Below are positions 4,730 to 35,000 of a DNA stretch of 64,000 nucleotides, one piece after another. Position 1 is the first letter of the stretch, and the number at the start of each line of letters is the position of its first letter. The notes beneath the pieces were generated by a model. It saw only the letters and a program-made list of their open reading frames with translations, was not told the origin of the DNA and ran no database searches. The position numbers and the translations under genes are program-made. Origin of the DNA: Lytechinus pictus (Eukaryota); the NCBI RefSeq assembly GCF_037042905.1, contig NC_087251.1, forward strand, positions 19,284,001-19,348,000, given 5' to 3'.

Positions 4730-7604
4730 CGTGGTCCAATGGATACAAATCACGTCAAATCGTTTGTCAAAATGAATATTTCTTGTAAATTTATTGACTT
4801 TGTTCGATGAGTCGAACATGTATGGGCCTAAGTGGTATCAAACGTTATCATCTGAAAGTATCAGTTTTACACTGGGAATTGTCTCCTATCATCTGGGATA
4901 TTTTCAGGTGCAAGCAAGAGGGGGGGGGGGGACACAGACATAAGCACAATGATGGCGCTATTGAAATTACGCAGCAAACCCCATCGACCCTCACTCTGTT
5001 TTTCTACTTTAAACAAGCTCATGAGAAAAAAAAGTTCATGTGACTCACTTATGTCAAACCCATGCGGCTGATGGATATATTACCCACTTTTCAGACGGGG
5101 GGGGGGGGGGGGGGTGGGGAGCTGTACAAATGTCTCCCCATTTTTCAAGGAAGATATTGCAAATTTTAGCACATTTTGTGCCCGAGTGATTCCTGTGTAA
5201 AGACTTGCTGCATAGGTTGATATTCACTGCATCACGAGCATGGGTGTCGATCCGGGGGGGGGGGGGTATATCCCCCTAAATTTTAGTTGGGGATGCCCTG
5301 TACAATCACCCCCAAACAAATTTCGAGGGCATGAAAAAATACCAATATATCTACAGAAAAAATCGATGAATTTATTAAAATACATAAAATCAATAAAAAT
5401 TGACACCACAGACATACAACAAAAAAGAAAAAGAAAAGTAAAATTTTTCCCCAAAATCAGTTAATCCTAAGGTTTTTTTTCTGAAGTTGACATGTCTGTT
5501 TTGAAAACAGTTAACACACTCATCTGTATGTGACAAGTGAACTTGCCGATATAGGTTTCATGAGCCATGAATAATTGCATATGTTCAGGCCCTCTCATTT
5601 CGATGGTGCTTAAAAACAAAATTATTTTAACCACAAATGCATTTTTATATGTTCTTATTAATTTAGCAGAAGTTACACAGGTTAGCTTCATCGTTTTTTG
5701 ATAACATAATTTTCCCCTTTGCTTACTATCCTATAGTAGTGAGATCAATCAAGACTGTATGGCAGGGTTTGCGATGAAATCAATGGCCAATGCAATTTAC
5801 ATCACTTTTCAACTCAAAAATTATACACTCTAAATTACAAAGATTTGTAAAAAATAAATCCATTACAGCTATGAATAGTGGCCAGTCGATGTAAGGATTT
5901 AAAATTGATCCTTAAAGGTTTAAATGTTAATGAATTTTGATTTAAACATCAATCTTTAAGATTTACATTATTATGCAAAGTCGTACATTACGCAGCTTCA
6001 AATTATTTTGAGGCGATCCATCAAAATGTGAGCTTACGCTATAACATCTTCCAAGATGATGATGTATAGGCCCTAAATTTCACAAATAGATTTGACTTCT
6101 ATAAACTATTTGAAAAGTTTTTAACTTAGATGGTACTACTAATTGTTTTTGCCATGTTAACAATTATGTCAGAATCTGACACGAGATTTAAAAAGAAAAT
6201 AATGTAGTTAATCTCATAGAGATGATATTTTGACCTTACACAGAACTGTACTTTCAGGTTTTTACCTCATTATGATCAATTAATCTGTTCACAATGGTTG
6301 TTTAAACCGTTGCTTATGCTATTCCGTATTCAAGGGGGCCTACTTTCATTTTTCTGTCAATGTTTTGAGTTGTTCTTTTTCTTGAAATAAAATACTTGTA
6401 ACCTTGAAACTTGTTGTGTGTTCAATATTTGCTAATTTAATAGAGAAAGTGGACAACAATATAATGGCCCAGAAAGTGATTTTAGTATGCTCTAGAGTGC
6501 GATTTTCACATGTCAATTTCTTAAAGAGTCCTTAAAACCATCACTCATCTTTGGGTACTTTCTCAAACGATTTTCGACAAACAAATGCAAAAAAATACTT
6601 CGATGTAAAGGTGCAGTCATACTCTAATCATTATTACACTACCAAAGAAATAAGCACAAAAAGCGTCAATTGTTTAGAATTAATAATTTTATTCACAGCA
6701 AGTTTTTCAAAATATTTTATTACAAATTACATTTTCGCAATTCATTAAAATATATCTCTAATCTGTCAAACAAAAAGTAAATTTCCCACGAATCTAAAGA
6801 TTTGAAAAATTCGTCAAAATATGTTTCTATAGTTGGGACATAAAACAATTTTACATTATGATGTAGATAAGATGGTACATGTATGATACTCAAATGTGAA
6901 GGATGATTTTTTTTCTTAGTAATATATTATAAATTTTACACATTAATGGTATAATACTTTGAAAGTCAAATCACTTTAAAACTATATACATACGAGATCA
7001 AAGCTGCCTATATACTAAGCTGTTTTTGATAATACTTATAATACATCAAAGTGTATAAAGTGCATAAATCATACAGGGTAGTGTATTATAATATTTATAG
7101 AGCTTTATCAGAATGGGAGTATAATACTTTTTATGATAAATCGTATCTATTAATGTCTGGAAAAGGATTTAAAATATTTGAAAATTTACAACTGGTGATA
7201 AACATTGTTTAAGGCAGATTACCATTAAAGGGAGAAGATCCCTCCTAATTTCAAGATAAGTTTTACTTTGGTATCGTCACTTGTGAACTCCTATCACAGG
7301 CCATGTGCTATGAATTTCCTTTAAATATGCCATTTTAGAAACGTTCATAATTCATATACTTATTTTGTCTATTTTCGCCTTAACGTACTTGATACGTTTT
7401 CTCTCGTTATTAGAATTACATTAAAACCAACTCGATATCAGGATTTCCACTTTAAAATGCTAATAATTGATATCCAAATTGACATTGGTGGTACTGGAGA
7501 GTTATAAGCTATAATGATTATTTTCATATCAAATATATTTAATTTAATTTTCTTCTTTCTTTTTATTATTTTGGGGGGGGCTCTTAGGGAGCTTCATCAT
7601 TGCT

Positions 7605-7991
7605 TCAGTGATGGAAGGATGTATGGCTACCAGACGCAGATGGCGCTCTAGGTGAAGTAGTGGCCCTTGGTGTCACTTCATCGACACCGGGCATACCACC
7701 ACCACCTGGTCGTCCAACCACGTTATTCATGTAATCCAAGTAGGAGTTATCACTACCCTGTGCCATCTTGCCCTTTGGAAGAGGATTGTTGGTGGTGTCA
7801 ATTTTACCATTGACAACCCTACCATCATTGCCCACCAGTGCGACAGGAGGTGGGTCTAAGGGTCCCATCACGCCTGTTGGGGGCATGATGTCGTTGTAGG
7901 GGTTCCGTTGGGCGTAAGTTGGTGGAGGCATGCCGTACGATGGAAGCGGCTGGGCACCGTAGGCAGGGGGCATGGGGTCGGCCATTGAGTT
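7605..7991 (-). CDS. REJ/GPS gene exon 28 (last): cytoplasmic tail with PPAY, LPSY, PPTY motifs
   Basis: cag acceptor 7994-7992, phase 0; [12 protein letters not shown]...SFHH then TGA. Confidence 0.85.
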   Translation of the reverse strand, partial: NSMADPMPPAYGAQPLPSYGMPPPTYAQRNPYNDIMPPTGVMGPLDPPPVALVGNDGRVVNGKIDTTNNPLPKGKMAQGSDNSYLDYMNNVVGRPGGGGMPGVDEVTPRATTSPRAPSASGSHTSFHH

Positions 7992-10900
7992 CTGTGAGAG
8001 ATAACGATATGAATTCATATGAGCTGACAATAAATACACAGGGTATTTTACTGCTACATTCATAAATTGCTATCATAACAACCTTTTGCAGCCCATGTAT
8101 TCAATAATCAATATCGTAATGAACTCCTCCTCCTCGTAATGAACTTTCTCCTTCTTTTCAATTTTTTCTTGGTCCATTTTAGGAGGGGTGGGGGAACATT
8201 ACCCTTCAAGTGTCCCATCTTATACGCGAGTGGGTCAAACAGCTATCATAACAACCATATAAAATGCTGGCTAAATTTTTAAGAGGAATTTATCCCTGAC
8301 GGCAGGTTACTTTTAATATGAACAAAAACCATGTTAATGAAAGTTAGACGAAAATCTATCAAAAATAATAGACCTCCAAATTTTCAAAGTTTTATCTTTG
8401 TGTCATCACATTCTATCAGGCATACATCATGAATATCAATTTTATAAACTGCCATATTTTTGTTCAAAGAAAGTTTTTAACTGTAATATTTTAATGGTTC
8501 TTGATAACTAGAACATATTTTCCACAGAAGCAAATACATGACCTGTGGCGCGTAACACAAAACTTAGCAATCTTCGTAGAATACATATTTTTTTATTTTT
8601 GATTGCAATGACTACAATATACAATTATGCATCAAAATCTAGCATACGATCAATTGATAAAAGTGTTACGGGACCCTGAATGTATTATAAAAAACCAAAA
8701 ACAATTTGAACTTTTTGAGAACAATATTAACTTTTTTACAAAGTTCTGGAATTTATACTTCTTGATTCACACGTGATCATAAAAAAATTACAAGTTCACA
8801 ACTCCATTATTCCTTGATAATTCTTCTTCAAAACTTCATTATTATATATTTTTTCAATAAATTTCATCCTTCATAAACAAAAACAATTTTACATCAGGAT
8901 AAACTTCCCCTATAAAACTAATGACAAGTACGCTGATAATGAAAGGCATGACACTTACTTGCGGTGGTGGTGGAGGTGGTACTGACTGGCCGTTTTCAAT
9001 ACTGGTAGAAGGTACAGCAGACCTTTTATTAATCTTCATTACCATACAGATCAAGAGAATCACAATGAAGATTAGGATAATAAACCCAGCAGCACATCCG
9101 ATGGCGATATAGAGGACCAAACCTGTAGGAAAAGTAAAAGAATAATGATATGGTGATTATGGATTATTATGAGTAGTTACTTGATATCTGCTTGTAATAC
9201 TGGAAGACCAGTTCGTATAGTTATCACAGTTCCGACGTACCCTATAGATGAATCTGACTTACTGGGGATCTTTCAGAGAAGACATAAAGGCACTTCAATA
9301 GTTTATGCATATACGTCACGTGCTAGCTATGTCAGCGCATACATGATCTTTTCCTAGGCATACTTAACGCCCCAGTTAAAAATACATAAAAAATAATAAC
9401 TCCTAACTAAATTGTTCTATAAATAGATTGTGTTTCCTTGTGAACAAAATGAATGCTTCAACATTTCATGATTAATAATGCTCCATGAGCGAATAAATGG
9501 TCGATTCGGGAACACATTCCAATATACAGATGCACCTTTCAGCTTCCTGGAGGCGACGTCTGCATTAACCTGCTATGTAAGGTATATTCACTAGGCAATG
9601 GTTTTGGAATCCAATTTATATACGAATCGATTGTTGCTATGTCGAGCAAACGTCTTACAGCATTTCATACCATATATTACAGGTCTGTTAGATGACAAAG
9701 GTAAATTCGTCAAAGCAACAACAAAATGTAATATACAGTTGTTTTGAAGAATAGATTGATGGACTGAGGTTGCTCTGGATTTTGTTCAGTGAAGTAACAA
9801 CATGCCGAGATCAAAATGATAATCAAAACAGTCACAAACTGTTTTATCTCTCAAGAAAGGAGGCAAATAATCGATTCACCTTTGATACATGTCTGCAATC
9901 AGCTCAAAGTTTGTTTCATTACGTTCAAAATGGTAAGAATGATTTCCACTAAAATGTGTTACAAATATTCAAATAAGCAAGTTCCTATATACAGGGGTGG
10001 ATCCAGGATTTCATAATATAAACGTATATAAAATGTATCTAGTTGGTTTGGCGAAATATTTCTGACTAAAATGTTTTCACTTCTGAAAATTCTCTCTAAA
10101 ATTACGAAAAGCAAAACAAATACAATAAATAAATGTATATGTTTTCACTATAACATCCAAAGAAGAGCACAGGGGGGTATATATACTCATCACCTCATCA
10201 GATAAGGGAGTCTGCCCCACCCTGGATCCGGGCCTGCATAATTTTATGAAGATTCTAAATCTCTCCCCGTTCTTAAAACGTGTACACTTAGACGAAAGAT
10301 ACTTACTTGTTAGTCCTTCAAGTTCATCAGCTATGTTTAAAAAAAAAGAAAAAGAAGAAAAAGAAATTGACATAATTGTGATACAGCAGAGATTATGATT
10401 TAGTTTTGAAATAATCATTTTTGTTTACATTTGATCTTTTGAACAAGCAATGCAAGATACACTAGAATGATAAAATTAAATATGCAAAATAGGAAGAAGA
10501 AAAAAAACAAACAATCAATTGGCTTCATAATTTCAAAGTTTAAGCCCATTATGTACTGTTTTGAATTGTTTATTTTAAATGCATTCTTGTTATTTTTTTT
10601 TAATTATCAGTATCATAAATGTGTCATGTGTCTGTTCTATTTAATCAACTTATTTATGTATGTTGATATTTTTTTATTGCTGTTGCCGATTTCTGTTAGG
10701 AAGCACCTTGCTCGACAAGCGTTTCTTGAGATACCACTCATATTTTAACCTTTGTAAAATTTTCTGTTGCATCATCTGAGAATAGATAAATGAATTGAAT
10801 ACAATGGTATATGAATTTATGAATAAACAGATAACCCCCCACACACACACACCCACACACATGATCAGGTAAATAGGAAATAATCAGTGTTCAGCTAAAT

Positions 10901-13900
10901 AACTGACTGACTAATACCTTGGTCACATTTGCTCTACGGCGGCCGTACGGCGGCCGTAGATACCTGAATTCGAGAGATTTCTGCGGCGGCCGCAGAAAAT
11001 CTGCGGTGGCCGCAGGGTCGACGTACGGCGGATTCCTACTTTTTACATGCCGTAGGGGTGGCCGTAGAATTTTAACTCAGAGTTATAACATTTTTTCTTT
11101 TCTACGCTCGCCGTAGAAATTAGACTAGCCGTAGGCATGGCGTAGAATGGTCTACGGCGGCCGTACGTCGAGCGTACGGTGGCCGTAGGGCTGCCCTCGT
11201 GTTTTTTTTCCCTCCTTTCCCCTTTTTCTTTTGTGTTATCTGCTCGGGAGCCACCAGTCGCGTATTTAGAATTTTGCACCTCGGGGGCCCGACCTATAAT
11301 TTTGGCCCATGTGTACTTTTTGGGAAAAAAATGGCGACCCCTCCTCGTCTGGTAAACAGGTGCCTTAAATGCATGTTGAATTATCTTATTTCATAATCAC
11401 ATGAAAAAGAGCAACTGCAGACCACTTTTTTAATGATGACTTAATAAAAAGCAAACTATCCATGAATATGATGTAATACCACTTTTTTAAGAACAAATGT
11501 GACCAGGAAGCACAGATATTGCCCTTTCGCCAGCGGCTAACTTGGGTACAATATGACGTTATTATCATTATCATTATTATTATTATTATCATGGGGAGTT
11601 AAATGCTGATTTTTGTTGTTGTTTCATAGGGTGTAGTTCTTACTTAAGACTAACGCTTTTATTAACATCTTAACTTTATTCATAAAAACAAGTTAACATG
11701 GTTAAGGGAGATTTATTTCATAAGTCTAAATAAATAATGCGAACGCGATTTTTGATAACTTGTGTATAGACCTGAACATAGAATATTCTGAGAATATTTG
11801 TAAGCATGAGCAGGATGGGTATCTATCTATCTGTCAGGGCGAGCTGAAAATTGTCTATATTCCAAAATGACCCAAAGTTTGGAAATTCTAAGCATTATTG
11901 GTAATCATGAACAGGATGGGCACTTAAAAATTATTCGATGCGAGCGCGAAGCGCGAGCTGAACTTTTTTATGTTCCGTTCCAAAACTAGACATTCTACGC
12001 AATTTAGGTAATCATTAGGTGATCATTAACAGGATGTCATCTAACTAATCATTCGATGCGAGCGCGAAGCGCGAATCACCCCAAAGGTCGAATTTGCCCC
12101 CCCCCTTCCTAGGTCGAACATTACTGATCGTATAATATTCAGATCAGTGTCAAACATTAATTTGGCGACCCCCCCCCCTTCCTAGGTCGAACATCAATTT
12201 GGCGCCCCCGCACTTTTATTACTTCTCCCCCTTTCCCCTTTTGTCTTCTCTCATTTTCCCTTCTTCTTGTTTCCTTCTCTTTCTTTTCTCCCTTTTCTCT
12301 TTTTCTTCTTTCCCCCTCCTTTTTTATCTCCCTTTTCTTTCCCTTTCTTTCCTCCCTCTTTTTGGCGCCCCCTTTTCGCCTACCCGGGAGCCCGGGCCCC
12401 GAACCCCCCCTCCCTCCCGCCCAGAATGCGCGCATGGGCATAATGCGACACTTTGAAAACTTTCTGAAATGAAATGTCTCATGTAAAAATATCATGATGG
12501 GTGTGACAAGCAATTCACGGTATACTCACTGTAAAGTCCCCCTGCGGCCGCCGTGAGGGCGCCTTGCGGCCACCTCGCGTCTGCAGTAGTATTTGTCAAA
12601 AACCTACGGCCAGCGCAGGGTCGCCCTATAGGGCGACCGTACGTCATGATTTCAAGGGCATACGTCAGCCGCAGATTTTTTTTTCTCCATAAATTAAAAA
12701 ATACGCCGTGCGGCGACCGTAACATATGTGACCGCTAGAGTAAGTGGCCGTGGAAATATTGCGGCGACCGTAGAATTGCTACTCGCCGTAGAAATTTTAG
12801 AATCTACGGCGGCCGTAGCAAATGTGACCAAGGTATTACTGTCTAACTAACTTTATAAAAAGATAATTGAATACATATTAGATGAATAGAAGAGAGATTG
12901 ATAAATAAACAAATGAATGAACAAAAAATGAATAATTATGTAAAAAGATGTAACAATAAGCAATTAAATAAAAGAATGAATGAACAAATTAACCGACTAT
13001 TTACTCAATTAGGCAGGCAAAGCACAAAACAACCATCTTTATTTGAAATAAGTGAATGTACACTGAAGGGATCTCGGCCAATTATTGATTGTTCAGTCCA
13101 TACTCACTTTGAGCGGTGGTAGAAGGCGGTGCCGTGGATTGGACGGGCGTTCCCATAATTGTAAACTCAGTAAGATGCGTGCTCTCACAGGAAACCGTAC
13201 TATCATCTACCGTTGTCGATGTCATACCATCCGTGCTCCAGTCATCGAGATCGCTGTCCCAATAGACGCAGCCGTAAGAGACCCCGGTCAAGGAGATCGT
13301 TAGAGGAAACGAAATGGTGACCGGTGTCGTCAGGCCACTCACGTTCAGTGTGGAACCTGGTGTGTGAATAATACGATAACGAGGATTTTATTTGAAGATG
13401 ACCATTAAAAAATCTGTACAAATTTTAAGAAACGAAGGATATGGAGGCAACTCCACGAAATAACACAATGAAGATGAGGTTTTAAAATTGCAGAGAGTGA
13501 TTTGTGAGAGTAAAGCAGAACTCAATGTCCAGAGCAAAAAAAAAATCGTCTTGCATGTATCCTTTTTTTCTCAGTTACGTTTGATGAAAGTTCCCATATA
13601 CGGGAACGTTCTCTAACCATTTAAATTTTTCAAATCTAGCCCGTTCATCAGATAATTAATTAATCAAGAATTTAATTACTTCTGTAAATCTGCCTAAAAA
13701 TCAGGAGTCCACAAAAATAGTTTGAGGGCCAAATCTTGTTATTGTCTTTGTTTCTTGTCTGTAGTTAGTCATCATTCTGCATGGTACTTTGTAAAAAGTT
13801 ATAAAATGGGCAGTATGAAGGCCTACATCTTTCGGCGAAGTTGTATTATAATGGGTTTGTGTTGACCGTTGTTCAAGATGGGGATTTTAGATATAAATCT

Positions 13901-16900
13901 CCTTTCTCATGACATAAGAAGTTTGTTTTATCAAGTTTGTATGAATCTATGGAATTGTTTAATTCATGTTTAAGTTTGAATAACATCTTTCTTTGATAGA
14001 ATATGTAACAGGTGAGAGATATGATCTACTTACCAGTAGACGGATTAGACAATTCAATTCCAATGATATCAGCTGCTCTATTATCAACATCATCCTGATC
14101 CATTGAGAACGGATCATTACTGGTCGAATAATGAGAGAATGTGATTGTTACTCCAGAACATGTCTCTCCATCGGCACAATCCCACGCACTTCCATACCTT
14201 ACAGACAAAAGAAATGATGATTATATTAGTAATACTGATACTAATGGGATTATGCAACATCTGAGCGCTTTATACAAATGTTTCTAGGCAGGTTACGTTA
14301 TTTCACTGGCTTCAACGTAGGTGATAAGAAGGCGCTTAAGCATTTTTCAGGAATTGATTTCTGCCAAGTTATTCATATAAGTGTAAATGAATTGTATTCA
14401 TAGTCACAGCATTATAAATAGAAAAAAATATGAATTTCTAGTGATTTACTATCCTAGTAGTATACTGCCACCATTTATTTGGAACAATTAAGATTTTTCA
14501 AAGATTAAGATTCAGTCAAAATGATGAATTCAAGTCAAGTCGCCTTCAGGTACATCATAATACAACATTTTGTATGCAGATTATAGTTTCGTAGCCGTTA
14601 ACATGATTGGCTGTTTCAAAATACGCCAAGTAGATTATTTTTTGAAGGAGCAATCGATTAACGCAAATACGTGGGAATCAATTAGAATTGTAATAATATT
14701 TATCAAAAAATAAAAGAACGTACAAACTGTTGAGTTCACTGCCGAAATCGATAGTCGCTGCTCCAGACCCGGAACTGGCAGATTCAAAACTCCCTGTAAG
14801 AAGAGCTCGCATGACGCCTACTGTGACGTCAGCCGAGATAATCTCTTGACGAGGTGCACCAAGCGCCAACGCTCCTGTCATTGATGTCGTGATCTTGCTT
14901 GTGATTTTACTGTGGTGGAAAAAGTTAAAGTCAAGTTTACCAGAGAATGTCCCAAAGAATTGAAATTAAATGTCTGGTATAATGTTAAGTAAGTGATGCA
15001 GGAAATAAGCTGTATTTGTGTAAATGAAAGTAAACCCAGAGAATACAATAAACATACTGATACAGAACAACCCGTCAAATGTTATCAATGCATCTGCTAT
15101 TTAAAAAAATGATAAAAATTGGCTATTTGTCATTTATAGTGGTTTTGGGATCTTAGGGGGGTGGGAAAACTGTCAAGGGGTAAACTTTAAAAATATGTTT
15201 TAAAATAGCTGCACTCTATTTGGTTGTAATCTCGTTCAATCACATTCAAATTAAGTGATCAAACACACAATGGTAATAGAAATAATAAATATTCTTCTTT
15301 TTTAACACTTTTTTGTGTATTTTGCTCAAAGAATGCCTTCCATATAACATACTTGATCTTATTAAGCATGGGTCCGTTGTCTGTGGCAGTCAGTCCATCT
15401 CCAATGGTAGCTAGCTGATAGAGGATACTCTCTGCACTGGAATCAGGTATGGTAACGTCTTCACTCACGTATACATTCACGATCTGGAGGATGTAGCCGA
15501 GGAATGTATCTGATTGAAGGAAACATTACAAAGGAGTAGACTAACGATTGACAACATCGACTGTATTTTCTTTTATGTAATTTAAAAGCTTGTAATATGC
15601 AAAGAGTCTGGAGACAGCAATATCATTCAATTAAATTCAAGTTAAATCAAATTTAAGAATGGACTTTAAGGATTCAGATCCAATACTAGCCCTGAATCAA
15701 AACTCTACATCAATTCCTTACCACAGCTTATTGATATTCCTGGAAATGTCAATAAGCTGACACTGTGTCTTTTATAACACAACAGTGCCATGTGTCTCGA
15801 AAAAAGATATCGTGTATAAAAATATCATTAATTGTGGAGGTGCCGTGGCCGAGTGGTCTAAGGCCTGACTAGACATTGAAAGTCCGGGGTTTGATCCCCG
15901 GCCTAGGCACATATGCCGGTGAGCATTGCACCTTATCATCAGTGCTATTTTATTCTGCATTCAAATAAATGGAAATGCTCTATGCATTCTTGGTAAATAG
16001 GTGTGAGTATGATTTTTTTTAAATGGAGTAACAAAATTCATATGTTCAAATTGATGAAATGAAATATACTCATCGAGGAGCAGCAAGTTAAACAATGGCT
16101 TTAGGCAGTGCAGATTCGGTAGAAGGGTTGACAAAAGAAAACTTGTATTTTCTGGACTAAACTTGATTAAGATCTTACCTTGATCTGCTAGAGTCAACTG
16201 AGCTGGACTGACAGCTGCGATCTGGTCGATGAGAATCTGAGCGGTGGTCGTATCAAGAACTGTATTACTTAATACATTGGCGATCAGGACCATTTGTTCG
16301 GCTGCTGTTGCCGATGTCTCGTCGGATGCTACACGACGTCGTCTTGAAGCACTTTCGTCCACCTTGGATGCAAGCATATTACGATTAGCCAGAGCTCCGA
16401 TGTGGTCACCTGGTAAGAAGCAAAGAAGACTGGTTAACATCTTTTGATCATTATACATGATGATAGAGAGTAACATAACTACTAAATTGTTAAATACGTT
16501 ACCGACCTTACAAATTGTCGAATTCCAATGAATCATCGGTTTGAATGTGCCAAGCCAATTTTGGGTTGATTTTGCCACTTTTTTGGTAGGACACCAAACG
16601 ATTTCGTATTTTGACCAACTCCTTTTTGTTAAAGTGTAGACATGTCAGTTTATTTTTAAGTTCGTGCACATGCGTTTATACCTATATCATAGTCATTTAT
16701 CTGATACACAATTCAATGTAGAAAATGCCCCTTTTCAATATAAGTCATGCAGGAGATCGTTCTGAGGATTAAAGCAACGATTTTTATGTCTATATAGTTA
16801 GACTCCTACCAAATGGCGGCACTGTGTAAGCAATCCTTCACATTCAAATGAAGAACTTGAAAGAGTAAACAGAAGGAGTAGGGGAAGGGAGGCTGAAGAG

Positions 16901-16968
16901 GAGAAGGAGAATAAATAGGAGAAGGAGGAGGAGGAGAAGAAGAAGAAGAATAAGAAGAAGAAGAGGAA

Positions 16969-17000
<32 letters not shown>

Positions 17001-20000
17001 GGGAAAAGGGGAAGAAGAAGAACTATAACAAATAAATACTCTGCATTTCCAAACTTTGTATGGAATATGCAAATTATTATTTCTAACCTGCGAATGTCTT
17101 TGCATTTACGAAGTCAGCCTTGAAGGAATTGATGTCAGCAGCAGAAAAGCTTAACTTGAGTGAAACATTAGTTCCTGCTATCCAAGTAGCACACATCTCA
17201 TTCTTGTCACAAACCTTTTTAAACGAAAATTAATGGATGACGAAAAAATTAGCATGATGTATGTACAATTTGTCAACTTTTTCTTACCAAATTTGAATTG
17301 AATTAAAGACCTATACTGATGAATTAGGAGTAACCTACCAAGGTACAATAATTGAATTATTAAGGTATTCTTTAGCGTAATAATTCTTTCAGTAAAATAA
17401 AATTTGACATATAAGTACTTTCGTATCATTAAACTGCTGAATCTAGCTATCATCACCGTTAGTATTATGCACCCCAAACACCATCATCATCATCATAACC
17501 ACTACCACCATCATCGTCATCACTATTATCACCCTCTCCTAACTCATCGTCTGCTTTACTTTATAGTTCTCATCATGATTCACCCCATTATCATTATCAT
17601 ACTCTTGATCATTATCATTTTCATATTTGGTATTGAACTCACGGTGATGACGTATGTTCTGTTATCACTCCCCTCTAGCTTTGGTTTGCCCACACCGGTG
17701 AAGCTTGGTTCAGAGTTCTTCTCAGTGATGATCTCGAGTTCGCCGTCGGCTTTGACGACGGAGAGCTGGTAGTTGAGCGGGTAAGCGTCGACCGAGGTGA
17801 CACAGTTCTCGGTGGTAAATATAACCTGCGATAATAAATCAACATATGCTCGTTTTTATCGAGGGCCTTGAGTGATTATTCTTCTGATTGCTTTGTCTAC
17901 TTTTGCCTTGCTGCGGTTTTAAAACGTGCTTGTTGAATATTTATTTTTTTGACAATGATCACTGTCATAATAATGATTACATACATCACTAATACCACAT
18001 TCGGCAAGAGGCCTGTAATAATAAAGAGATACAATGAATATTTTAATAATTTTTCACCTGTATTGTTCAATGTATTACATGCACTAAGGTTTCCATTTTT
18101 AATATCATTTCCTTTATGATAAGAAACTCATAACTAGTAAAATATTTGATACACCACCTTAACAATAGAATATCTTTGTAAGAACAGAGATGTGCCGACA
18201 GAGGAGCACCCGTATGATTCTTATTCTAAATGAACAATATAACCAGTGTGGAAATTCACCCTGATAAACAGCTACTTTCCTCTAATATACAAACATTGAA
18301 AGCTAGTCATTCATGGCAATGATAACGTCTTGACTGACTGACCTCATCGAGTTCTTCATAACTTGGCACGGAAAATTCGCATGATGTCGGGCCTGAACGG
18401 ACTTCGACGTAGCTCTTTACCGTGCTGTACTGATCACCGATGTCAGTTACATTCAGTAAGAATGCATAGCTCGCGCCACGCTGGACAATCCCTGTGGTTT
18501 TTAGAAGAATGGTGGGAACGAAATTCAGTTTTAGCAAAGGTAATCGCTTGTTGAAGTTTTAATTTTCAAGCTTATTTACTTTTAAATCATAACATAAGAA
18601 AACAATCTTCACACAGTTAACACAATTTCAACCAAACAATACAAACACAGATATACTAATTAAAACGGTATCTTGTATGGTGTGCGGAAAAAATTAAACT
18701 TTGTACTTCTCATTAATTTTGTATAGTAAAGCTGAGGGAATGAAGAGAGCCAATAGTAGCGTACAGCTTGCATATAAAGTACTGTTTTTGTTTTCTCAAC
18801 GAGCCACCATAGCATTTTATAGCAGGAGTGGAAAATGGCGACCGGCATTAATGTTGAATGTAGTCATTTAAACATTTTGAATATCTATCAGAAGTCCATC
18901 ATGATTAAGGTATTGTAGTATTCTTCGTTGAGCATCAGTTTTAATGGAAGCATGCTGAACGCATCAGGAGCTTGTCGTGGCATTTATTCGAATCTTAACC
19001 GGCCGCCATAACCATGATGACAAAGAGAGATAGCGAGAAATTGTCCAAGATATGCCTACCTCTTTTACTATAAACACCAAATCGTCTTAAAATACAAATT
19101 TATCTTGGAAATACAGGTTATGACCCATTCCCGTAAAAAAAGAAGATGATGACACCTAAATAAATGAAGCTACTGTTAAAAGAATATCTAACCTTTATCA
19201 ATAGTGATGGTTGCAATGCTGAAACCATCACCCGCTTCAAGAAGCTGCACATCTCCAAGTAGGTTGGAAGAATCAGTCAGGTCGATGTACGAATACCCTG
19301 AAGAAAAAAAAACACAATTTCAGATAAATATTAAAAACTCGCTGTCTTTCGTAATATTCCTGCATTCCCTTTGCTGATCCACATTTACATGCGTGAAAAA
19401 CTGAATTACTTTAAAACACGTATCAACATATTTTTATATACATTCGTAAGTTCAAGGAAATACATCTCACTGTGTGTATTTGAGTTTTGTCAGACGTGTA
19501 TCAATCAGATATGATCATTTACGTCTGGGACCGACCTTTAACGTCACCATCCGAAATACGTGACCAGGGCTCGAACCTCTGCTTCAATTTGTAACTTCCT
19601 CACAGCTTGGATTACAGGCGCACGCCACAACGCCCAGTTTTGGCGTGCATCTTAGCACTTTTAATGAATCTTCTTGAAAGCATTTCATCAACAATTTTCG
19701 TCTAACAAGTTGTCAGATCTAACAAATTTATTTTCAACGATCTCGAAGCACAGATGTCTGACAATCACTGTGGTCATTGTTTAAAAAAAAACTTGTCGGA
19801 TAAATCATTCGACGAGTCCTTTCATTAAAAACACTCACCTAAATCAGAATGACTGATAGTTTTATGGGCCTATTTCATATTAATAATTTCATCTTCTTGT
19901 CTTGTAATGATTTTTTTGTAATATATATTCAAATGTATATATAAGAAATGAAAATATAATTCAAATATTTACCTGAAGTGGTATCCACAGTTTGGAATGA

Positions 20001-23000
20001 ATAAGTAGAAAGGTCGGACGAGTGGAAGATGTATGCTGTAAGCTCAAGACTAACGTCATCATTGATTATATTATCCTCGTCGCTTGTAAACAGGATAATC
20101 TATAAAACACAAATTAAATAATAATGACAATAATAACATTCTCTTTAATAAAGTGCTTAAACGTCGGAATGGCAGCTCTAAGTGCATTAAAGAAATAACA
20201 TCTGTCACGTGACGCTAGGTTGCGGTGCCGGGTTTCGAGCACCCGACCCTCTGATTATAAGATAGATATTCGTACTACTACACAGACACTTCCACTAACC
20301 TACCATTTTAAAAACTGGAATGCAAATATGATTTAGAGATAAAAGGTAAATGCGACTCTGGTACAGATGGTGTGAGATTTCTGATCTGCAAATAATGCCA
20401 TCGCCATTCCTTATTGATCTTATTTGAATAAACACACAAATCACAAATTAACATTGTGGAGTACACGAGACATAACGACTTGCTGATACGACCCCGCGTC
20501 AAAGAACCAAGCATCAGTTGTCTCACCTAAACTTTTAACGGGAGGATCTAGACACAACATTGATTTGATTTGATTTGATTTGGTATGGTAATAACCCCCT
20601 TTTTATCTGGAGAGAATGCATTTTTCATCATTTTAAGATTCGTATCTCATAACGAAACTAATTGCAAATTCAAAGCAAAATATTCCTTCAGATGATATAT
20701 ATTATTGCAAATATTGTGAATATATACCTTTGGTGGATTTCCATTTACAGCTGATATGGTGACAAATGTTTGTGCCGTTCTCGTTTCCTTGCGTACCACC
20801 AGGGTAAATACATATGTCTTTTCTGCTTCGAGTGCCTGAGCATCGAATTCGAGCACGCCGACGTCGTTATTGCTGGTGTTGACAATCAGCGAACCGAGAG
20901 AGTCAGGATCGAATGACCAACAGGCAGAGTTGTCAGTCGTCTGTGTGATAAAAAAAACCCAGGAAATAACAAGATAAGATGAAAATTTGAGTTTTCAACT
21001 AAAATATCAGAATTATGCTACTAATGTTTGTAATAGCTACTCCCACTTGCCAGGAAAATACACAAGTGATTTAATTTTCAAGCTTATGACCGTTTGGTAA
21101 ACCCGTGTCCAGATAAGTATTTTATTTTATTTTATATCTATCATATCTATTGAGATTAGTAAACATCCAAGCAGTTTTCTTATTAAGTACTTAATCTCAT
21201 TTTGATAATAATACCGTTACGTTGTATACATTATGAAAGAATATGAGAGTCATTATGTCTCCTTCTCACTGTCGTGCTGTCCGCTACGAACACCATGATT
21301 TGCCTTCCATAAGTGATCGCGAGAACTTTCGAGGTATTTAATCTTTTCTGCGATCAGTACGATTGCCACGACTGATCTGATACGAACTAATACGATCACT
21401 GGGATTATTACTACGATTATCCCCGTTTCAATCGTGGGCGAATCGTGAAAGTGGAAAATTAGTATCATTGTTCCTCACCTGTTCACACAACCAAGTGTAC
21501 TCCCAATCACGGGCCTGTTCATCGGGATCAATGGAGTTGGTACCGTCCAAGGAGACGGTCCCGCTGTCGCGACCTACGATGAACTCTTTAGCGCCGTCGA
21601 TCTTGGCGATAAGGTCCGATTGATGTGTGGTGACGAGGATAGATGTCTGGGTGGCTTGGTTAGGTGTACTTGATTTGTACACCGTCACAGTGAATAATAT
21701 GTTCTCTCCACCTGTAGAAGAAGAAATAGAGATGTGTCATTTCTCGTTGATTGATTAGAAAGAAAAAAATCAGAAATGTATACGTCCCTCCGCCAATGTC
21801 CCGTTCCTTTTGGTTGAGCTACATAATTATGTATAAGTATTGTGTGTATGATTTTTCTGATTTCACTTTGTGTCATTACTAGGTATATATAATTCAATAC
21901 TTTCTTTGATAATTGTGTTCTCTTACCTAAATTTTAGCACTTTTTTCTCAGAACTTCACTTTAATCTCTATCTGATACCCATATCCCTCTTATCCCCCTC
22001 CCCTCTCCAACCCTCCCTCCCTATCTTTCACACCCTCTCTCTCTCACTCTCCTTCCCTCCCTCTCTCATTCTCACTTTTTGCAGTCACTTTCTATTCCCC
22101 ATCTCTCTCTCTCTCTCTTTCTCTATTCGTATCCCATTTTAAACAAGGAAATAATAACTGAAATGTTTATTCTGCTAGATCGTTCTCCATATAACACCCA
22201 ATGAATCTATGTTAGATATGAACCTATAGTCTCGCCTTCCATTCTTCCCTAGAGCCTGACCTAATATATCTCACCTGGAAGTGATCCCTCATCAACCCTT
22301 AATGCACGTGTGTACATAGTGAAGAGATTGAGAGCGACATCGGTGTTGTTCACCGACCATTCGATCACAGTTTCGCCAGCTGGCACACACTCAGAGTAGT
22401 ACTTGATGTCGGCGACCAGATAGAACCTGTACGATAAAAAAGTAGTTCATTATCGGGAATCGGGATGTACGTTTTCACACAGAAATGAACGTTATTACCC
22501 ACTCTGGTATGAATTGATTACACCGAGATTACTCTCAAGTTCGAATGATGATTTTGATGCAGTTTTTCACAACTGTCACCATGGTGACTTCTCGTTTCCT
22601 TAGAATAGTCGAGGTCCAGTGGATAAAATTTGGGCTGCGGATCACAGGGTTTGAAGTCCCGCTCTGGCACTAATCGTGCTAATGTCCTGAGGCTAGGTAA
22701 TAATGTACATTTGCCACCATCGACCCAGACGAGCTAATGAGGAATCACTAGGAAATTTGAAAGTGCCATAATTATGTTTCGCTTTTCTTAAGTCGGAGGT
22801 AATGAATGTGTAGCGACAAGAGACTCTCGGACAGACCGGAGCATTATATCAGAGATAGTTGATTTTATTATTACCTTCAAATGATAAACAAAAGAGTTAT
22901 TAATTGCTAATTAGTCACATTCATTTATTATATATCGATCTGTTTAGAAAATGGTAAGTTTACGACCAAGTCACTAACACTAAAGTATATCATCTTCAAA

Positions 23001-26000
23001 GGGGGTTTCCTAGACTTACAGGACCCTCTATGTTTAATGAGGTGTCTGAACATGATCCTCCTAGATAACAGTTCAGTATGTAAGACCGAGTTCTGCTTTG
23101 CTTTGTAATAGTTCTAGCTATGTATAACATTTCAGTTTTGCCTCTGTTAAAAGAATATTTCCATTTCCTTTGGCTTCGTATTGTTATATTATACAAAGAG
23201 AAGAACAATTATGAAAGGAAACAGAACTTACATATCAGCCACTTTGACGTAGTCAACATCGACACCACGTGGTTGAATGTTTACCTCTGGTGCTAGAGTA
23301 GCTGAACGTACAACGGTCAGGGAAGCAGAGTCAGATTGACCAAGGAAATTAGTTACGTTCAACGTGAAGTCATATTCCTCATCAGCTTCGGTTAGAAGGG
23401 ATCCATCTAGGACAAGATCTGCAAACCCGTAACCACCTTGGGCCGCTATATGTTAAAAAAGGAATGCAATATAAGAATGTAGGTTATGATAATATATTGC
23501 TATTCGTATAGAGCTATAAGCTTAAAGAGAAACTCGGTATAAGTGTTATTCATCGCACCGTAGAACCCCACCAAAAAAGCTTAGAGTAATAATAACAGTT
23601 ATCTTTCGAGTTATGACGGCAGGTAGACGGACGTTCGATCAATATATGATCAAGTCTAGAGCGATATCTTTTCTGACCATCTTCAACGTACCGTTATCAT
23701 TTCGAGATTTCATAATCTCTGCAAATACTACTGCCTTACCATTGGTAGTATCAAGAGCGTCGGTGAGGTTTGCATCGACAGTAGAAGCGCTGACGGACCA
23801 CTCGTAAATGAGAGGTCTGGCTCCAGAACCAGTAGATTTACGTCCATTCAGTACGAGATTCCCGCAGCTTGGTATCTTAGATGGTCCAGAGAGGAAAGCT
23901 GTTGGAATGAGCGGTGTATCTGGGGCCTGGATGGCTACGCTACCGTTAGCAGCGTAAGAATAATCCTGCAAGAACGCGTACACAGAATCGTTCTTAAGTG
24001 TCAAACTGTCCCCTGTGAAAACAAGAAAACAGAAAAGCGCCTTATTTTCAAATTGTTGAGAGGTGATCATGATGATTACAAATGGTATATGCAACAAATT
24101 ATTTTTCGACGAGGTGACATCGACTTCAATTCCAAAATTTTCAAACGTTTATCTTTTTCTTAATCTGCATTGCCTAATTTGGGGACAAGGAGCATATTTC
24201 CCTGTTATGATTTTCAGTATTAAACTATTTCTCGCACCAAACAGATGAACGATTGAGCAAATTGCTCTCTGACATTCCGAGCATACTCACCGATGCTGAA
24301 GAGGTTGTTCCCGGTGCCAAAGATGACAACCAGTTTCATAGGACCAGCCCAGATACACCAGGCACCCTTTCCAAGGCCATCAACATCCTCAAATATATCA
24401 TCACAAGACCCGAGATCGTAATAGTGAACAGGTTCGCCAAACTCCACCCATAGGAAAGCACCTTGTTTGGGGGAAATATATAGGAAAGCAATTATGATTG
24501 ATTTTATTAGCTTGATTAGGCACTGCGTGTCTCTAATCAATTTATTGTTTTATTGAATTATTATCATTTTGTAAATTCAAAGTTTATTGGTAACCAAATT
24601 GAGTTTAAAATGGTTGCGCTAAAGTAGCTTGATGTTTCATATCGCCTTAGATTTCCTGGTTTTGGTTATGGAATTCGGCAACTTTGACAAAGAAAGTAAA
24701 TTAGCAAACGAGAGTATTGAATGTGGCAACGAAATGTCGCAAAGTTTGCGTCAAGGGTGTTGGCGACAACAAGTTACAAATGTCGTGTCTGAAATCGTTG
24801 AGTTTGAGGTAAACTAGTCGAATTGTAAGTTAAAGTTGAATTACCAATGGACTCGAAATTCAAGGCGATATAAATTATAAATCGATCGCACTTTAGCGGA
24901 AACGAAGATTCTAAAACAAAGCAAAGCTCGAAACTAAAACCGCCAAATTCAAACGTTAGGTAAAGACGTCGAATTAACGATCAATGTTCCTGAAGCTTCA
25001 GTCTAGTTTACATCAAGGGAACCAAACCATGCGCGTTTTGTTCTGTTATTCTCTTATGATATTGAATACCACAGACCAACTGATATACGTAGGCCTACCT
25101 GTTGAAGAAAACTGAGCTAAATCAATGGTCGGAGCGCTCCAATAAGCAGTCAACGTCACTTCGTCACCAATAAGACTGTCCTGTCCGTTTATGCTTGGGA
25201 AGGCGAAGAATCGACCCGACGTCGTTGGTAAGATAAAGTCTACGGTGAACTTTCTGTCGTTTGTGAATGTTCCTGCACTCATCCACACTGTTTCAGCTGT
25301 GGAAGATGAATTTATTAGATGGACATTAGAATGTTAAATGGAGGGGGTGAGGGATGCCAAACAATAAGGTTGTAGGTTTTAAGTAGAGGTAATTACTTTG
25401 AGGTAATTACATTAAGGTAATTACTTTGAGGATGGACAGAATCACTGTATTGGACAATTTGTAAATGAGCGATGAAAGTGAGAAGCAATATATGATAATA
25501 TTGAAATTGATGATTAAATTTGAAATAGATTTTGCGAGTGGAAAGGTCTTGTAGGCTGGGAATTAAAAGAAGTTCAATTAGCATCTTGATGCTGAAAAAC
25601 TAAAAAGAACTGATTTGACCAATAAATACCAATGTTGTATAAGCTTTGGGCGTCTTTTCTTATAAATTCTTTTGAACGGGTTTTAGCAGTAAATTTAAAA
25701 GTGAAGGCTTTAGATATCTACATTTATTTGAGCAAGAACGAAAACAAAACCCGACAAATTGTCATCATTTAGCATAATTAAAGAACAACCGCTTTTTTAT
25801 ATAGAATACCTATTTAGGGTTAAGGGTTATAGTATCGATTTTTTTTGGTTTCAATTAAAAGTTTAAAACATCAAATACAATGAGCCTGGTTGAAGCAGTT
25901 GCAGTGGCGCTCGGCCCACACTGGAATCAAGTTTCTATATCGCAATTAACTTTTAGATGGGAAGCAAGTATCTGGGCACATGTGCATCACAATTTCCTCG

Positions 26001-29000
26001 CTACATAAAAGTTTTTACGTTATTCTCATAGAATTCGACAATATGTTCTCAGTTGATTTTCTTTTTTTTTCAATTATGATTTGTTAACTTACGGTCATCT
26101 TCAGGTGAAACAAAGACCGAAGGAATGACATTGTAATCAGACAATGACATGAAGTCTGAGAATGAACCAGATGGAGCAGTGATCTCAAAGGTTTGTAGTC
26201 TTGGCACCTTGGTAACTAAAGCTTCGGTAGGACTGATGCTGTTGAAGCTGATATCTGACAAAGGTTGTAGGAAGAAGAAGTATTATCATATATTAAGCAA
26301 ATGGTATATTGATTGCGATTTTATCATTATTTACTTATATATTTATCTATTTATTTGTTTTATTACTTATTTATTTAATTATTCATTTATTAATTAATTT
26401 GTTAATTAATTAATTAATTTATTCATTTATTTATTGGGGTAAAGCCTGAAATTGTTTATATAAACATTAGTTAGGAAAATGATTCGTTATTACAATAACC
26501 ATACCAATACACAATTGTAAAAATAAATCCTTCCTCATCATTATCGTCACCCTCTCCCTGTGAATGGCGCCCGATCATTAAAAGCACACAAACTTACCTT
26601 CATATACATAGATACTCTGTCTGAATTCAGAGAGTGAGTCGCTGTTGCGCTTGATTGCCAGATCATATTCACCTGCATATACAAAGATAATCGTTAAAAG
26701 ATGAATCAAGATGTGAGCATGTGACGGTATCGTAATCTAAAATGCTAAACACGGCTGAAAAAACTTAAGAAGGAATGATAATGGTATTAAAATCAAGGGT
26801 TTTATTCGTTAACTTGTACAAAGTAATATCATTCCTACATTAAGTTTCCATTTAAGAAGCATTTAAGTGCACTATGTACATGATGTAATTATTTTAATTG
26901 CCTCTAATCAGCTGACAGTATGAATTATTATGCAAGTTTTAATGATGCATTTTTTCCACAAATACATACTGTCACTTTTTTTTTTGGGGGGGGGGGGGTT
27001 CGATCTTGGCTTATGTATGCACAGATCAGCAGACTCTATCAATCATATTATCAATAATCAATCGCTGAAGCTGCAAGATTCTTATCGATATAACTTACCT
27101 GCATCCAAGGCCGGGGTGGTACATTCAAGTTCAAAGTAGCTGATGAGATCGCCAATCTCTGCTTCGTATTGTTCACCGCTGTTGTCAATGAAGACACATG
27201 ATAGAGATGCATCGCTGCTGAACCCTGCTCCTACCACGTGGATCTGAAGAATAACGAAATTAAAAAAAACCCAGGAAACATGGTTCAGGAGCGGCGAATC
27301 CTTGATGTATGCCATTTTAAGCAAATATATTTGGGAATTACACATTTTCTAAAATTTTTTAATAGAACAACGTGTGTTCAACGGGCAATACATTATTTGC
27401 TAAAAACTAGTTTTAAGCGAAACGTCACGTTGGAATGTATTTAAGATTAAGTCCAATACAGAAAGGAAAGGATGGTCATATTGGTAAGTCAAAGGAAATT
27501 GAACCTTTATAAACGCACACAAAATATGTAAAGAGATCAAAACGTTTATTCTTCTTCTTCTTTAACTCTGGTATATCAGTTTTGAGTTGCGGTGTACCGC
27601 AAGGTTCTATATTGGGTCCATTGTTATTTCTGATTTATATCAATGATATTTGTTTGGTATCAAACACATTGAATTATATATTATTTGCTGATGACACAAG
27701 TGTTTTCCTATCACACCGTGATATTGATATCTTAGAAACACCATCAATATAATGTTGAACTTCCGAAACTATCTAAATGGTTTGGAAGTAATATGTTATC
27801 ACTGAATGTTAAAAAGACTAATTATATACACTTTAAAGGCAGGAAGTCATGTGCTGACCATGATTTAAGATTGAAACTTGACAATGCTTTGTTGGAAAGA
27901 AAGACGTCTACGAGGTTCCTTGGGGTCTACATCAATGATCAACTTAACTGGAATGATCACTTGAAACACATCAGTAAACCAATTTCTCGAAATATAGGTA
28001 TACTGTATAAAGTTAAGTACCTTGTACCTTATAAAATACTTTACATGTTGTACAATACTCTTATTCTACCTTATTTATCATATTGCAATATTCTTTGGGC
28101 AACATCAACGAGTGTCACAAACCCAATTCTTCTGTTGCAAAAGAAAGCAATTCGTATTTGTGCTGGAGTTGATTACCGTGATCATACGCGCCCTCTCTTT
28201 ATAAAGCTGCAATGTCTTACTGTTGATGATGTCCATTTTCTTCAAACTTCCCTTTTTATGATTCGATTTAATGCCAAAATGTTACCTACCTGCTTTTCCA
28301 CTATGTTTCAACAAAATAATACTATCCATACCTACCACACAAGACAAGCATCTAATATGCATTTGTATAACCCTCGCACGCTGTTGGCTCACAAATCTAT
28401 CAGACATTATGGACCTGATGTTTGGAATTCCCTACCTACTAGTACTAGGAATATATTATCAGTGCATTCCTTCAAAAGGGCGGGAAAACGCATACTTGTC
28501 TCTATTAAAGATGTAACTTTTTAGCAAGACACATTTTTGTTGTACTATACATCTTAAACTTAAAGATTGATATAATTTCAATAATTATTACGCCTCACAC
28601 ACTCCTTGTAAATATTTGTAAATAGTTGTGGCACATATAATTTGTTTTTTGTGCGTAATCATTAGTTTTTAATTTTTAGTATTCTTTTATATTTATGTAT
28701 GTATTTTATATATCCAAAGGTGTGACAACAGCTCAAGCATCTGCTTATGTTGTCATACCACTGCATGTCTGCAGCCTTGGTATAATCAGTTGTGTAAATG
28801 ATCATAATTATACATTATTATTATGTAAAATTTAATGTATTTAATGTTGTGATGGTCACACTATGTACATTGTCATGACATGCAGAAACGAATAAATAAA
28901 TAAATAAATAAAAATAAATAAAGGTGACAAGATTCACTAAAATGTTGGGCGTCCCACTTATTGAAACCTAATGGCGTTTCTGATTCAAACTGCTTTCAGG

Positions 29001-32000: not shown

Positions 32001-35000
32001 TCCAATGAAAGTAGGTGTAAAAATATTCTTAAAAAACATCAAAGAAGTCACATTTCACGAGCTGACATTTGAGAATGATTGTTAATGTCTGAGAATTTGC
32101 AAAGACGAAGGAAGATTTGCAAAACATACAACGAACTATATATATCTTAATAAGTTTGTAATTGCCTAAACTAATTTTCTAGCATTTTCATTTTATTTTT
32201 ATTTTTAGGAATATTTGGTATTATTTACCAACCTGCCCAAATAAAATATATTTAATGAGCCGAATTCCGATAGCCGAAGCCAAAAAGTCTCAAAATGAAA
32301 TGAAGATAAACAAAAATTAATATCGGATAGATATGGGCCAAACTTCCATTATTCCCATTTTGAAGATGAAAAATTATTTAACTAAACTTGAAGATGAAAG
32401 AATCATGATCAGAAATCCTCTCTTTCAGCTAACCTTAAATGTTCTTTTTATGTATCATTCATAATATCGTCCTGATATTTCTTGATTTAACTTAGTTGTA
32501 AATCATTTTGATTATAGTATGATAGTATTCGTTTTCACTCAAAATCAGCCCTCCCTCCCTAATCCATGCACGGACACCAGCAAATAAGTCGAAACTGGTC
32601 AAACTCAGTCAAAATTATTAATAAAATTAACGTTAAAACTCTTCAATTGAATAAAAATGAATCTACCAGAATTAAGTCAATATAAACAAAAATATAATTC
32701 TTGATTCGTTAACTAGAATGGAATGAAATTTAAAGTTAGAGCCCACTTTGCGGTTAGTCATCGTATTTCGTAATCCGTTATATATTTTCTGTAATAAAAC
32801 GTCTGTAATGCACTCATTTAAGATGAGATGGACTAAGTGAAAAAAATAAACGAGTAAGATGTTCTTAGCTGTAAAGATTTTTCTATAATGCATTAATGGG
32901 GTAAAATGTTGGGACCTTGTGTGGTTTTATTTTCAGCGAATTTGGTTGGTATACATCCCCTCATTAGATGACTAAAACTGAATAAATGGGTTTTAAGAAC
33001 ACCTCTTTCATTTCGATACTCTTTACTACCACAATCCTATTTAAATATCCGATTCGCGTTCTTGTGTCACCAATTCCGTATTTCTCCCAAGGATTTGCGT
33101 AGTTATTCATGTCTTACAGTTATTTGTCTCCCCATTAAAAGAACATTTTCAATTAAAAAAAAAATGTATATGTTATTATTGACTACCTAGATTATGCACA
33201 TATATATTCTAAAATTCATAAATCAACCAAGCTATTTAACAAACGAAAGCTTTCAAAGTATTGCGTGGTTTCAATATTTGTTATGATCTCGTTTTTTTGA
33301 AGACATGACGGATCAATATTTGGACTCTGTCACTCATGTCACTCAAAGCCTTGCGACTGATCCGATCGTACAGTTGAATTGTGCGATTGGTAGCACATGA
33401 CGAACATTTCCATCAGAGAATTAATGAGAAATTGGTTATACGATTAATCCTAACACTTTGTATAGCATCATCGAGATGCTTTTAATTGGCTACTCCGGGC
33501 TCAAAATAGTTATTTCTAAATAAATAAAGTAAAAAATCATCAAACAAAACGCTGCAATTTTCATCAAAATCTGATAGGAAAATATTAAGTAATTGAATTG
33601 TAAAGATTACGAGAATTTTGTGAAAACAATTATATGCACGCCTTCATGAATATGCACTAGGTCGTCTGATGATGTCATGTCCCCACTTTCCTTTATTACG
33701 TTATTACATGAAATTATACTTATTTCACATGTTCATGGATGTTCCATGTAAAAAGTTACAGCAATGAATATTCAATGCATTAGATCAGTTTTCAAACAAT
33801 TTTCTTGGTGGTCTTAGTGGTCAAAATTTAAATAAATCTTACTTCATAAAACAAAATACAAAACAATCAGTGAGAGTATGACATCATCAGCTTGCTCATT
33901 GCATATTCATGAATGCATGCATAGAACTGTTTCACCGAAATAATGCAATGCTTTAAAATGTCATAGCTATGTTATTTGTCAGATTTTTTGATGAAATTTT
34001 CAGTGCTTTTTTTTTCATCTGTTCAAATCATTTGATTTTCAACCTTGAGCACCTATTTAAATATCTTGCTACTGAGATATATAACGAGATGTCATGGGGG
34101 AAGGGGAGGGGGGGGGGTAAATGACCAGCGGCGTATCGTGGGTCATGGCATGGGGGGGGGGGCACGAGTTACTTATTGAGAGCTCAGTAGCCAACACAGT
34201 GACCTGGAAAATATACATTTTAAGGACTCTTTGTAGGAATTCATGAAGAGCATACTTATCTAAGGACCCTACTGATCAAATGATACGATTGCCAAGCGCG
34301 AGGTGAAAATATTTGATATTCAGATCTGAAAATAGTATATTCTAAGTACCAGCTTTTTAAAAATAATATCTCACTAAATATGCAATGCAATTTTTGTATG
34401 TCTTTTGTTTGTTTAAAGGTCAAGTCCACCCCAGAAAAATGTTGATTTGAATAAACAGAGAAAAATCAAACAAACATAACACTGAAAATGTCATCAAAAT
34501 CGGATGTAAAATAAGAAAGTTATGACATTTTAAAGTTTTGCTTATTTTCACAAAACAGTGATATGCATAATTCAGTGACATGCAAATTAGACAGTCAATG
34601 ATGTCTCTCACTCACTATTTCTTTTGTTTTTTATTGTTTGAATTATACAATACTTCATTTGTTTATATATTTGACAATAAGGACAAATTTGATTGAATCA
34701 TAGTATTAAACAATGCTCATTCCACACTTGACAATGAGGAGAAAAATATGATATTCCATATTTCACATAATAAAATACAAAAGAAATAGTGAGTGGATGA
34801 CGTCATCAGTCTCCTCATTTGCATATAACTGTTTTGTGAAATTAAGCAAACATTTAAAATGTAATAACTTTCTTATTTTACATCCGATTTTGATAAAGTT
34901 TTCAGTGTTATGCTTGTTGGATTTTTCTGTTTTTATTCAAGTCAACTTTTTTGGGGTGGATTTGTCCTTTTTGACATAACACATGACACGTGAACTCCGA

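Follow-up and report, generated by a model that had tools for sequence, protein, structure and literature searches.

A candidate SINE with a head derived from 7SL RNA and a tRNA-type back half in an intron of the sea urchin Lytechinus pictus

SINEs derived from 7SL RNA are on record from Euarchontoglires, hagfish and the shrew mole and all of them keep both 7SL ends (PMC7245038, PMC13023118). A 2026 paper treats such SINEs as exceptional, names supraprimates, hagfish and the shrew mole as their hosts and reports nearly the same central deletion in them (PMC13023118). An earlier sequence-only reading of the locus described below had given primates, rodents, tree shrews and hagfish, a host list that is incomplete, since the Urop element of the shrew mole is missing from it (PMC13023118). 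As described there, Alu, B1, Tu and Urop have a U-turn 5′ Alu domain at the 5′ end and Pol III A and B boxes, with the B box about 60-75 nt in, and combine a central 7SL deletion and a retained 3′ end with poly(A) and L1; among them the nearest parallel to the present case is one Tu unit of dual 7SL and tRNA origin (PMC13023118). The SINE1-1_EBu element of the hagfish Eptatretus burgeri is built differently: 96 nt of the 7SL 5′ part, a 7SL 3′ part and the 7SL B box stand on an older tRNA-SINE back part with no S domain, and a LINE-recognition tail (a bipartite RTE sequence) with a short-repeat end takes the place of poly(A) (PMC7245038). Template switching or recombination has been proposed for its birth (PMC7245038).

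Exchanges of the 5′ part are also established for the Deu-SINEs with 5S rRNA or partial tRNA heads (Nishihara 2006, via PMC4824008, PMC4758252) and for HaSE1 and HaSE3 of a moth, where a different Pol III RNA stands ahead of a tRNA-Deu/Nin SINE with the same central motif (PMC5786205). These 5S-type Deu-SINE and moth grafts probably arose by template switching, as those sources propose for the composite 5S/tRNA heads (PMC4824008, PMC4758252). A third point of reference is experimental. In human cells, nucleotides 1-46 of 7SL RNA promote retrotransposition and equal the 86-nt domain in SRP9/14 binding; the engineered constructs SA46 and AY46, which span these nucleotides, bind SRP9/14 and promote one round of retrotransposition in HeLa cells, although they have no B box, use an external promoter and depend on poly(A) and L1; and an active Alu requires the 3′ part of the domain for the sake of its B box (all from PMC11760393). 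Another paper places the SRP9/14 site within the first 50 nt (PMC12265939). Of sea-urchin SINEs we know, by their listing, SINE2-1_SP and SINE2-2_SP, which are MetaSINEs, and the DeuSINE SINE2-3_SP, which carries a Deu domain; all three are classed as SINE2 and are tRNA-headed (PMC4824008). A literature search through titles and the beginnings of abstracts, in which subscription papers and Repbase Reports were thinly covered, turned up no 7SL-derived SINE from a sea urchin or any other invertebrate; Repbase does contain Lytechinus entries, among them RTE-2_LVa.

The window analysed here, a 64-kb stretch of the Lytechinus pictus genome, contains one element with a 7SL-like head. It is 168 nt long, lies on the minus strand at 19638-19471 and shows a head-body-tail build of less than 1 kb with a Pol III B box. 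Because its head alone matches SRP RNA and the rest recurs behind other heads in three dispersed metagenome loci, the element is likely a chimera of a 45-nt 5′ Alu domain of 7SL RNA and the back half of a tRNA-type SINE. We assign a probability of roughly three in four to the reading that it is this chimera and likely represents one insertion of a sea-urchin SINE family with many copies. Like SINE1-1_EBu, it joins a 7SL head without S domain to an older tRNA-SINE back part and ends in a candidate LINE-recognition region and short repeats; unlike it, it has no more than 45 nt of 7SL, and its B box is of tRNA type and followed by a Deu/Nin-like motif and a stem-loop (PMC7245038). With Alu, B1, Tu and Urop it shares the 5′ U-turn domain, the two promoter boxes and the distance of the B box, without their central deletion, 3′ end, poly(A) and L1 association (PMC13023118). 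Alu, B1, Urop and SINE1-1_EBu combine both parts of the Alu domain with a 7SL B box; the urchin element has the 5′ part alone and a tRNA-type B box.

The element sits in sense orientation in a phase 1 GT..AG intron of 675 nt (19972-19298, minus strand), and the exons on either side form a continuous open frame when joined. The exons near it carry Pfam REJ and GPS domains, by which the host gene is a PKD1/REJ-like gene. As a whole this multi-exon gene extends over about 7600-25400 on the minus strand, with a single membrane-like segment near 8854-9156.

The head (19594-19638, minus strand, element nt 1-45) is matched by the Rfam family Metazoa_SRP (RF00017) at 19586-19638 with 30.5 bits and an E-value of 4.4e-6 in a scan of 701 bases, and in a scan of the whole 64 kb with 4,227 families it is the top of four matches at E ≤ 0.5, with E 4e-4. 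The alignment covers model positions 1-46 with identity at 34 of 45 consensus positions and one inserted base (counted by eye on the Rfam alignment), and the similarity stops at nt 45, the point at which the 5′ domain is completed by its closing helix. Derivation of the head from the 5′ part of 7SL RNA is supported by this comparison with the Metazoa_SRP family model, in keeping with the earlier placement of a 7SL-like head at this site and on this strand; the 27 of 35 positions then said to match human 7SL are counted correctly for the human sequence quoted there. A 7SL RNA gene or plain retrocopy was considered and rejected, the score being far below the gathering score of 70 for the family, with 252 of the 299 model positions skipped and, as had been reported, no S domain; the low score also weighs against the favoured chimera. 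Likewise absent is the Alu domain's 3′ half, since model positions after 46 are skipped and the downstream sequence aligns to SINEs that are not 7SL-derived. The description as an Alu-like SINE is supported as regards a 7SL head on an invertebrate SINE body, by the Rfam match, the conserved fold, and the body and tail common to dispersed elements elsewhere; it goes too far in the term Alu-like, as the 5′ domain alone is kept.

The match could in principle be fortuitous, if the A-box region of an ordinary tRNA-Deu SINE had decayed and come to resemble the 7SL 5′ end. The A boxes of tRNA and 7SL RNA are alike, the B box with its T-arm-like hairpin is of tRNA type, and in one of four comparisons the head showed a weak local similarity to the tRNA-like element elsewhere in the window, which 20 of 500 shuffles equalled. 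We regard this as very unlikely, however, given that the E-value of 4e-4 is already corrected for 4,227 families and 64 kb, that identity extends over three quarters of the consensus positions (34 of 45), and that the relatives with other heads lack an SRP match. Within the 701-base scan no tRNA match to the head appeared at E ≤ 10, and no tRNA-type A box was found in it at one mismatch, although the tRNA-headed element of the window does score as tRNA (23.3 bits). The missing tRNA match is weak evidence when taken alone, because ARAGORN and Rfam also miss the heads of the three metagenome relatives.

The resemblance of the head to Alu 5′ ends also raises the question of mammalian Alu or B1 contamination, of a mis-joined assembly or of a decayed 7SL gene. 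These explanations appear extremely improbable in view of the clean intron between in-frame exons, the direct continuation of the head into a marine-invertebrate SINE body and the absence of the S domain and the 3′ part. Moreover, in the closing-helix pairs 1-45 and 3-43 both bases depart from the consensus with pairing kept, compensation that would be expected if the SRP RNA were a functional one of a different lineage and not if this were a decayed Alu.

Behind the head follows a 16-nt linker (19578-19593, minus strand), which the SRP model reaches only by a local end and in which 3-5 of 13 positions are identical to the metagenome relatives. The B box at 19577-19567, noted already in the sequence-only reading, agrees with the consensus used at zero mismatch and is predicted to lie in a small T-arm-like hairpin. 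The B box precedes the Deu motif by 22 nt in the window copy and likewise in all three metagenome loci. This suggests that it came from the tRNA-type parent SINE and not from 7SL, because the same register is found in three relatives without a 7SL head. Of the Deu/Nin central domain, a resemblance to which had been pointed out, only the 5′ motif is resembled, by eye, over about 38 nt at 19527-19564 (minus strand), and the remainder is absent; the stretch is common to the three relatives. By eye, and in part from supplement sequences, this motif is also like hagfish SINE2-7B_EBu, moth HaSE1 and HaSE3, and the stretch of BivaMD-SINE1 after the Meta domain, which has been called a partial Deu (PMC4824008). 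Assignment to the MetaSINEs, a class defined by a 66-bp Meta domain after the tRNA region, was tried and rejected, the stretch behind the B box being unlike the Meta region of BivaMeta and BivaMD by eye. The body is followed by a 37-nt stem-loop (19491-19527, minus strand; MFE −10.6 kcal/mol) that the sequence-only reading did not mention. The same fold is found in two relatives, L007 (−11.5) and L008 (−10.3 kcal/mol), and a weaker one in L006 (−4.8 kcal/mol), and the stem-loop is likely the signal for the reverse transcriptase of a partner LINE. What had been called a (CA)n tail (19471-19490, minus strand) proved to be a 20-nt A/C-rich run with only a few terminal CA units; the tails of the relatives end in CA or CAAC repeats. 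A sequence scan found no run of four T inside the element, and the first one downstream, a possible Pol III terminator, lies at 19416-19413 (minus strand).

The relatives were recovered from marine metagenome contigs with a 23-nt body pattern that was chosen without reference to the head. It gave three loci (L006 at 370-584, L007 at 428-590 and L008 at 168-372), each with the module of B box, Deu motif and stem-loop behind one of three different heads. Over the stretch that starts near the B box and includes the tail, the window copy is identical to them at 76 of 90, 95 of 107 and 81 of 85 positions (84-95%). Since the search pattern itself forces identity, identities were also counted outside it: between the pattern and the far end of the stem-loop they amount to 35, 40 and 40 of 42, and from the B box to the pattern to 13-16 of 22. 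Register of the B box, stem-loop and tail type are shared by all three loci, and a profile built from them alone finds the window copy at E 2e-31, with no other hit below E 0.75 in the 64 kb. Conversely, none of the three (0/3) has an SRP match by Rfam or a similarity to the head in sequence comparison. On visual inspection, sequence like a tRNA D-loop or A box is seen in L007 and L008, and L006 has no clear A box; neither Rfam nor ARAGORN calls a tRNA in any of them, so that the putative tRNA origin of these heads rests on the visible boxes. B box, body, stem-loop and tail together are, to judge from these comparisons, a mobile SINE module that travels behind several heads.

Parts of the element were also sought more widely. 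A degenerate body pattern found five loci in viral contigs, all unrelated by their flanks; the head pattern and the linker/B-box pattern found none there, and the tail pattern found one, a chance match within a phage gene. Two pattern scans of prokaryote genomes, one of them with the tail motif, gave 0 and 0 loci. Among sequencing runs searched with a 601-base stretch, 20 of the 24 listed contain part of it; they come from 10 studies, with no RNA run listed. None contains half of the words of the stretch, and the best shares, 0.21-0.23, would be as compatible with a match to just the element as with one to this locus in a form about 5% diverged.

As for traces of the insertion itself, no target-site duplication above chance was found: the best candidate requires a 3-nt gap, and 854 of 5,000 random pairs equal its score. 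In this, and in the single copy in the window, the earlier account stands, and both points weigh against the favoured reading. A different mark, absent from that account, lies directly upstream of the head, where 19648-19637 is an inverted copy of 19631-19620 with 11 of 12 positions matching, the part beyond the element being 19639-19648 (minus strand). Fold-backs of that length occur in 2 of 1,495 random flanks. The window contains 11 distinct hairpin sites of this size, four of them with GC-rich arms (eight shuffled windows: four such hits), and two of these four are the 5′ ends of the two SINE-like elements of the window. The second of these elements, at 4657-4742 on the minus strand, has a head that resembles a tRNA (23.3 bits with the Rfam tRNA model, E 0.016 in 451 bases), and at its 5′ end 12 bp of its own 5′ sequence are repeated as a fold-back (4712-4742). 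Among the 5′ junctions of R2-mediated insertions, one class that has been described arises by snap-back synthesis on the cDNA (PMC11204384), and by this analogy, with two cases at hand, the fold-back was likely made at insertion. If it is a snap-back, the cDNA ended at 19638 and the RNA consequently began with the 7SL domain. In this genome, such 5′ duplications (19620-19648; 4712-4742) may commonly mark insertions.

The same paper shows that extra templates at the 5′ junctions of non-LTR insertions are known (PMC11204384), and the element could therefore be a one-off chimeric retrocopy, in which a single switch from a Deu-SINE to a 7SL template, as in U6/L1 chimeras, left no descendant family. 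There is a single copy in 64 kb, and no headed copy was found in viral contigs, both as such an event would have it. Yet the junction at the end of a complete domain, together with a workable spacing of A and B boxes, would rather suit a founder that had been under selection, and we consider the one-off event clearly unlikely.

A pathway by which the multi-copy family may have arisen and may work can be outlined as follows. A LINE reverse transcriptase copying the RNA of a tRNA-Deu SINE would have switched template to 7SL RNA, or the two would have recombined, and the 7SL 5′ domain would thereby have replaced the front half of the tRNA head. Pol III would transcribe the hybrid from a 7SL-type A box, assigned to the head by analogy to SINE1-1_EBu (PMC7245038), and a tRNA-type B box about 55 nt on, reading through to the T run in the flank. 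The head of the transcript would fold as an SRP9/14-binding domain and bring the RNA to ribosomes, and the reverse transcriptase of the partner LINE would recognise the 3′ stem-loop and the tail, leading to target-primed insertion, with the fold-back at the 5′ junction likely marking the end of a full-length cDNA. In the 5S Deu-SINEs and in HaSE1 and HaSE3, by contrast, the grafted 5S rRNA takes over the promoter, whereas the 7SL graft, having no B box, must rely on that of the tRNA (PMC4824008, PMC4758252, PMC5786205). We hold it an evenly balanced proposition that a sea urchin has independently evolved a successful SINE family with a minimal 46-nt SRP9/14-binding domain, without the 3′ Alu half, with a B box borrowed from a tRNA and with a partner LINE that reads a stem-loop. 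Searches for that LINE, which covered the LINE of the window and tail-motif scans of viral contigs and prokaryote genomes, found none. The window's LINE is a 3′ fragment at 27736-28910 (plus strand) with a frame of 262 aa that is like the C-terminal part of a reverse transcriptase and has no Pfam match, a 3′ UTR that is AT-rich and forms a hairpin near 28720-28760, and AATA repeats at its end. It has a 13-nt word in common with the stem-loop; its 3′ end differs, and it was rejected as partner.

The function of the head is the only point on which this proposal differs from another, namely that a multi-copy family exists and its head is truly 7SL, serving as A-box donor only, with no SRP9/14 binding and with the fold a leftover. 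The closing helix, helix 3, the U-turn at nt 23-27 and helix 4 are all found in the head (19594-19638, minus strand), which likely also includes the A box, and the Alu-domain stem and U-turn described earlier are thus borne out. Loop bases are intact along with the U-turn motif, and one consensus helix-3 pair is broken in the Rfam alignment. Counting the Rfam pairing and three loop-loop pairs, 15 of 17 pairs are able to form. This is equalled by 23 of 200,000 shuffles; at least 15 pairs are possible in 10 of the 127,908 46-mers of the window, the head and nine others, so the pattern alone is not unique. Thermodynamically, the isolated head is no more stable than its shuffles (z 0.67), its Alu-type fold lies 2.1 kcal/mol above the MFE, and in a 152-nt RNA the pair probabilities predicted for its helices are 0-0.25. 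The poor prediction of these helices in the full RNA and the broken helix-3 pair accord with a mere A-box donor, as does the LINE-type 3′ stem-loop in place of a poly(A) tail, with which ribosome targeting may be unneeded. However, the folding program models neither protein binding nor loop-loop pairs, and the whole domain is kept, well beyond the nt 6-15 that an A-box donor would account for, with its U-turn motif and loop bases. We therefore judge the donor-only explanation rather doubtful and favour a head that would fold as an SRP9/14-binding domain, the binding being carried over from the human work.

The span of 7SL in the urchin element is that of SA46 and AY46, nt 1-46, so that the graft matches the minimal Alu domain as defined by experiment, and the element would be a natural version of these constructs with a borrowed B box (PMC11760393). 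If the proposal is true, it would be the first invertebrate SINE with a 7SL head, and an invertebrate case of such different build would show a second route to these elements, the grafting of the 5′ domain alone onto an existing SINE. It would also offer a natural test of whether SINEs that do not belong to the L1/poly(A) system profit from being brought to ribosomes by SRP9/14. The tRNA-headed parent, in a group of laboratory animals, would then be the control for whether SRP9/14 binding raises the success of a SINE that works with a stem-loop-reading LINE. With regard to nomenclature, SINEBase speaks of a SINE from at least 100 interspersed copies per genome and of SINE1 when 60% identity to 7SL or more extends over 60 nt or more, and the present match, spanning 45-46 nt, is too short for the latter rule. 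Under the wider usage, in which any SINE whose 5′ part derives from 7SL is a SINE1, the element would qualify provided it is multi-copy.

Several other features of the window may be recorded. Two diverged sets of Cys-rich tandem coding repeats (36905-37920 and 47667-48340) are 66-87% alike, and other dispersed and inverted repeats (33519-34970 with 45629-46108; 260-476 with 21253-21457) are 69-86% alike. On the minus strand, an open frame of 1,368 aa at 38572-42678 is rich in Ser/Trp repeats, which alternate with acidic domains, an ankyrin-repeat gene lies at 1484-2569, and 60389-62656 contains an exon of a BCL11 zinc-finger gene, whose product shares 97% identity with its Lytechinus variegatus counterpart and 69% with the one in Diadema setosum, in keeping with a Lytechinus or closely related host.
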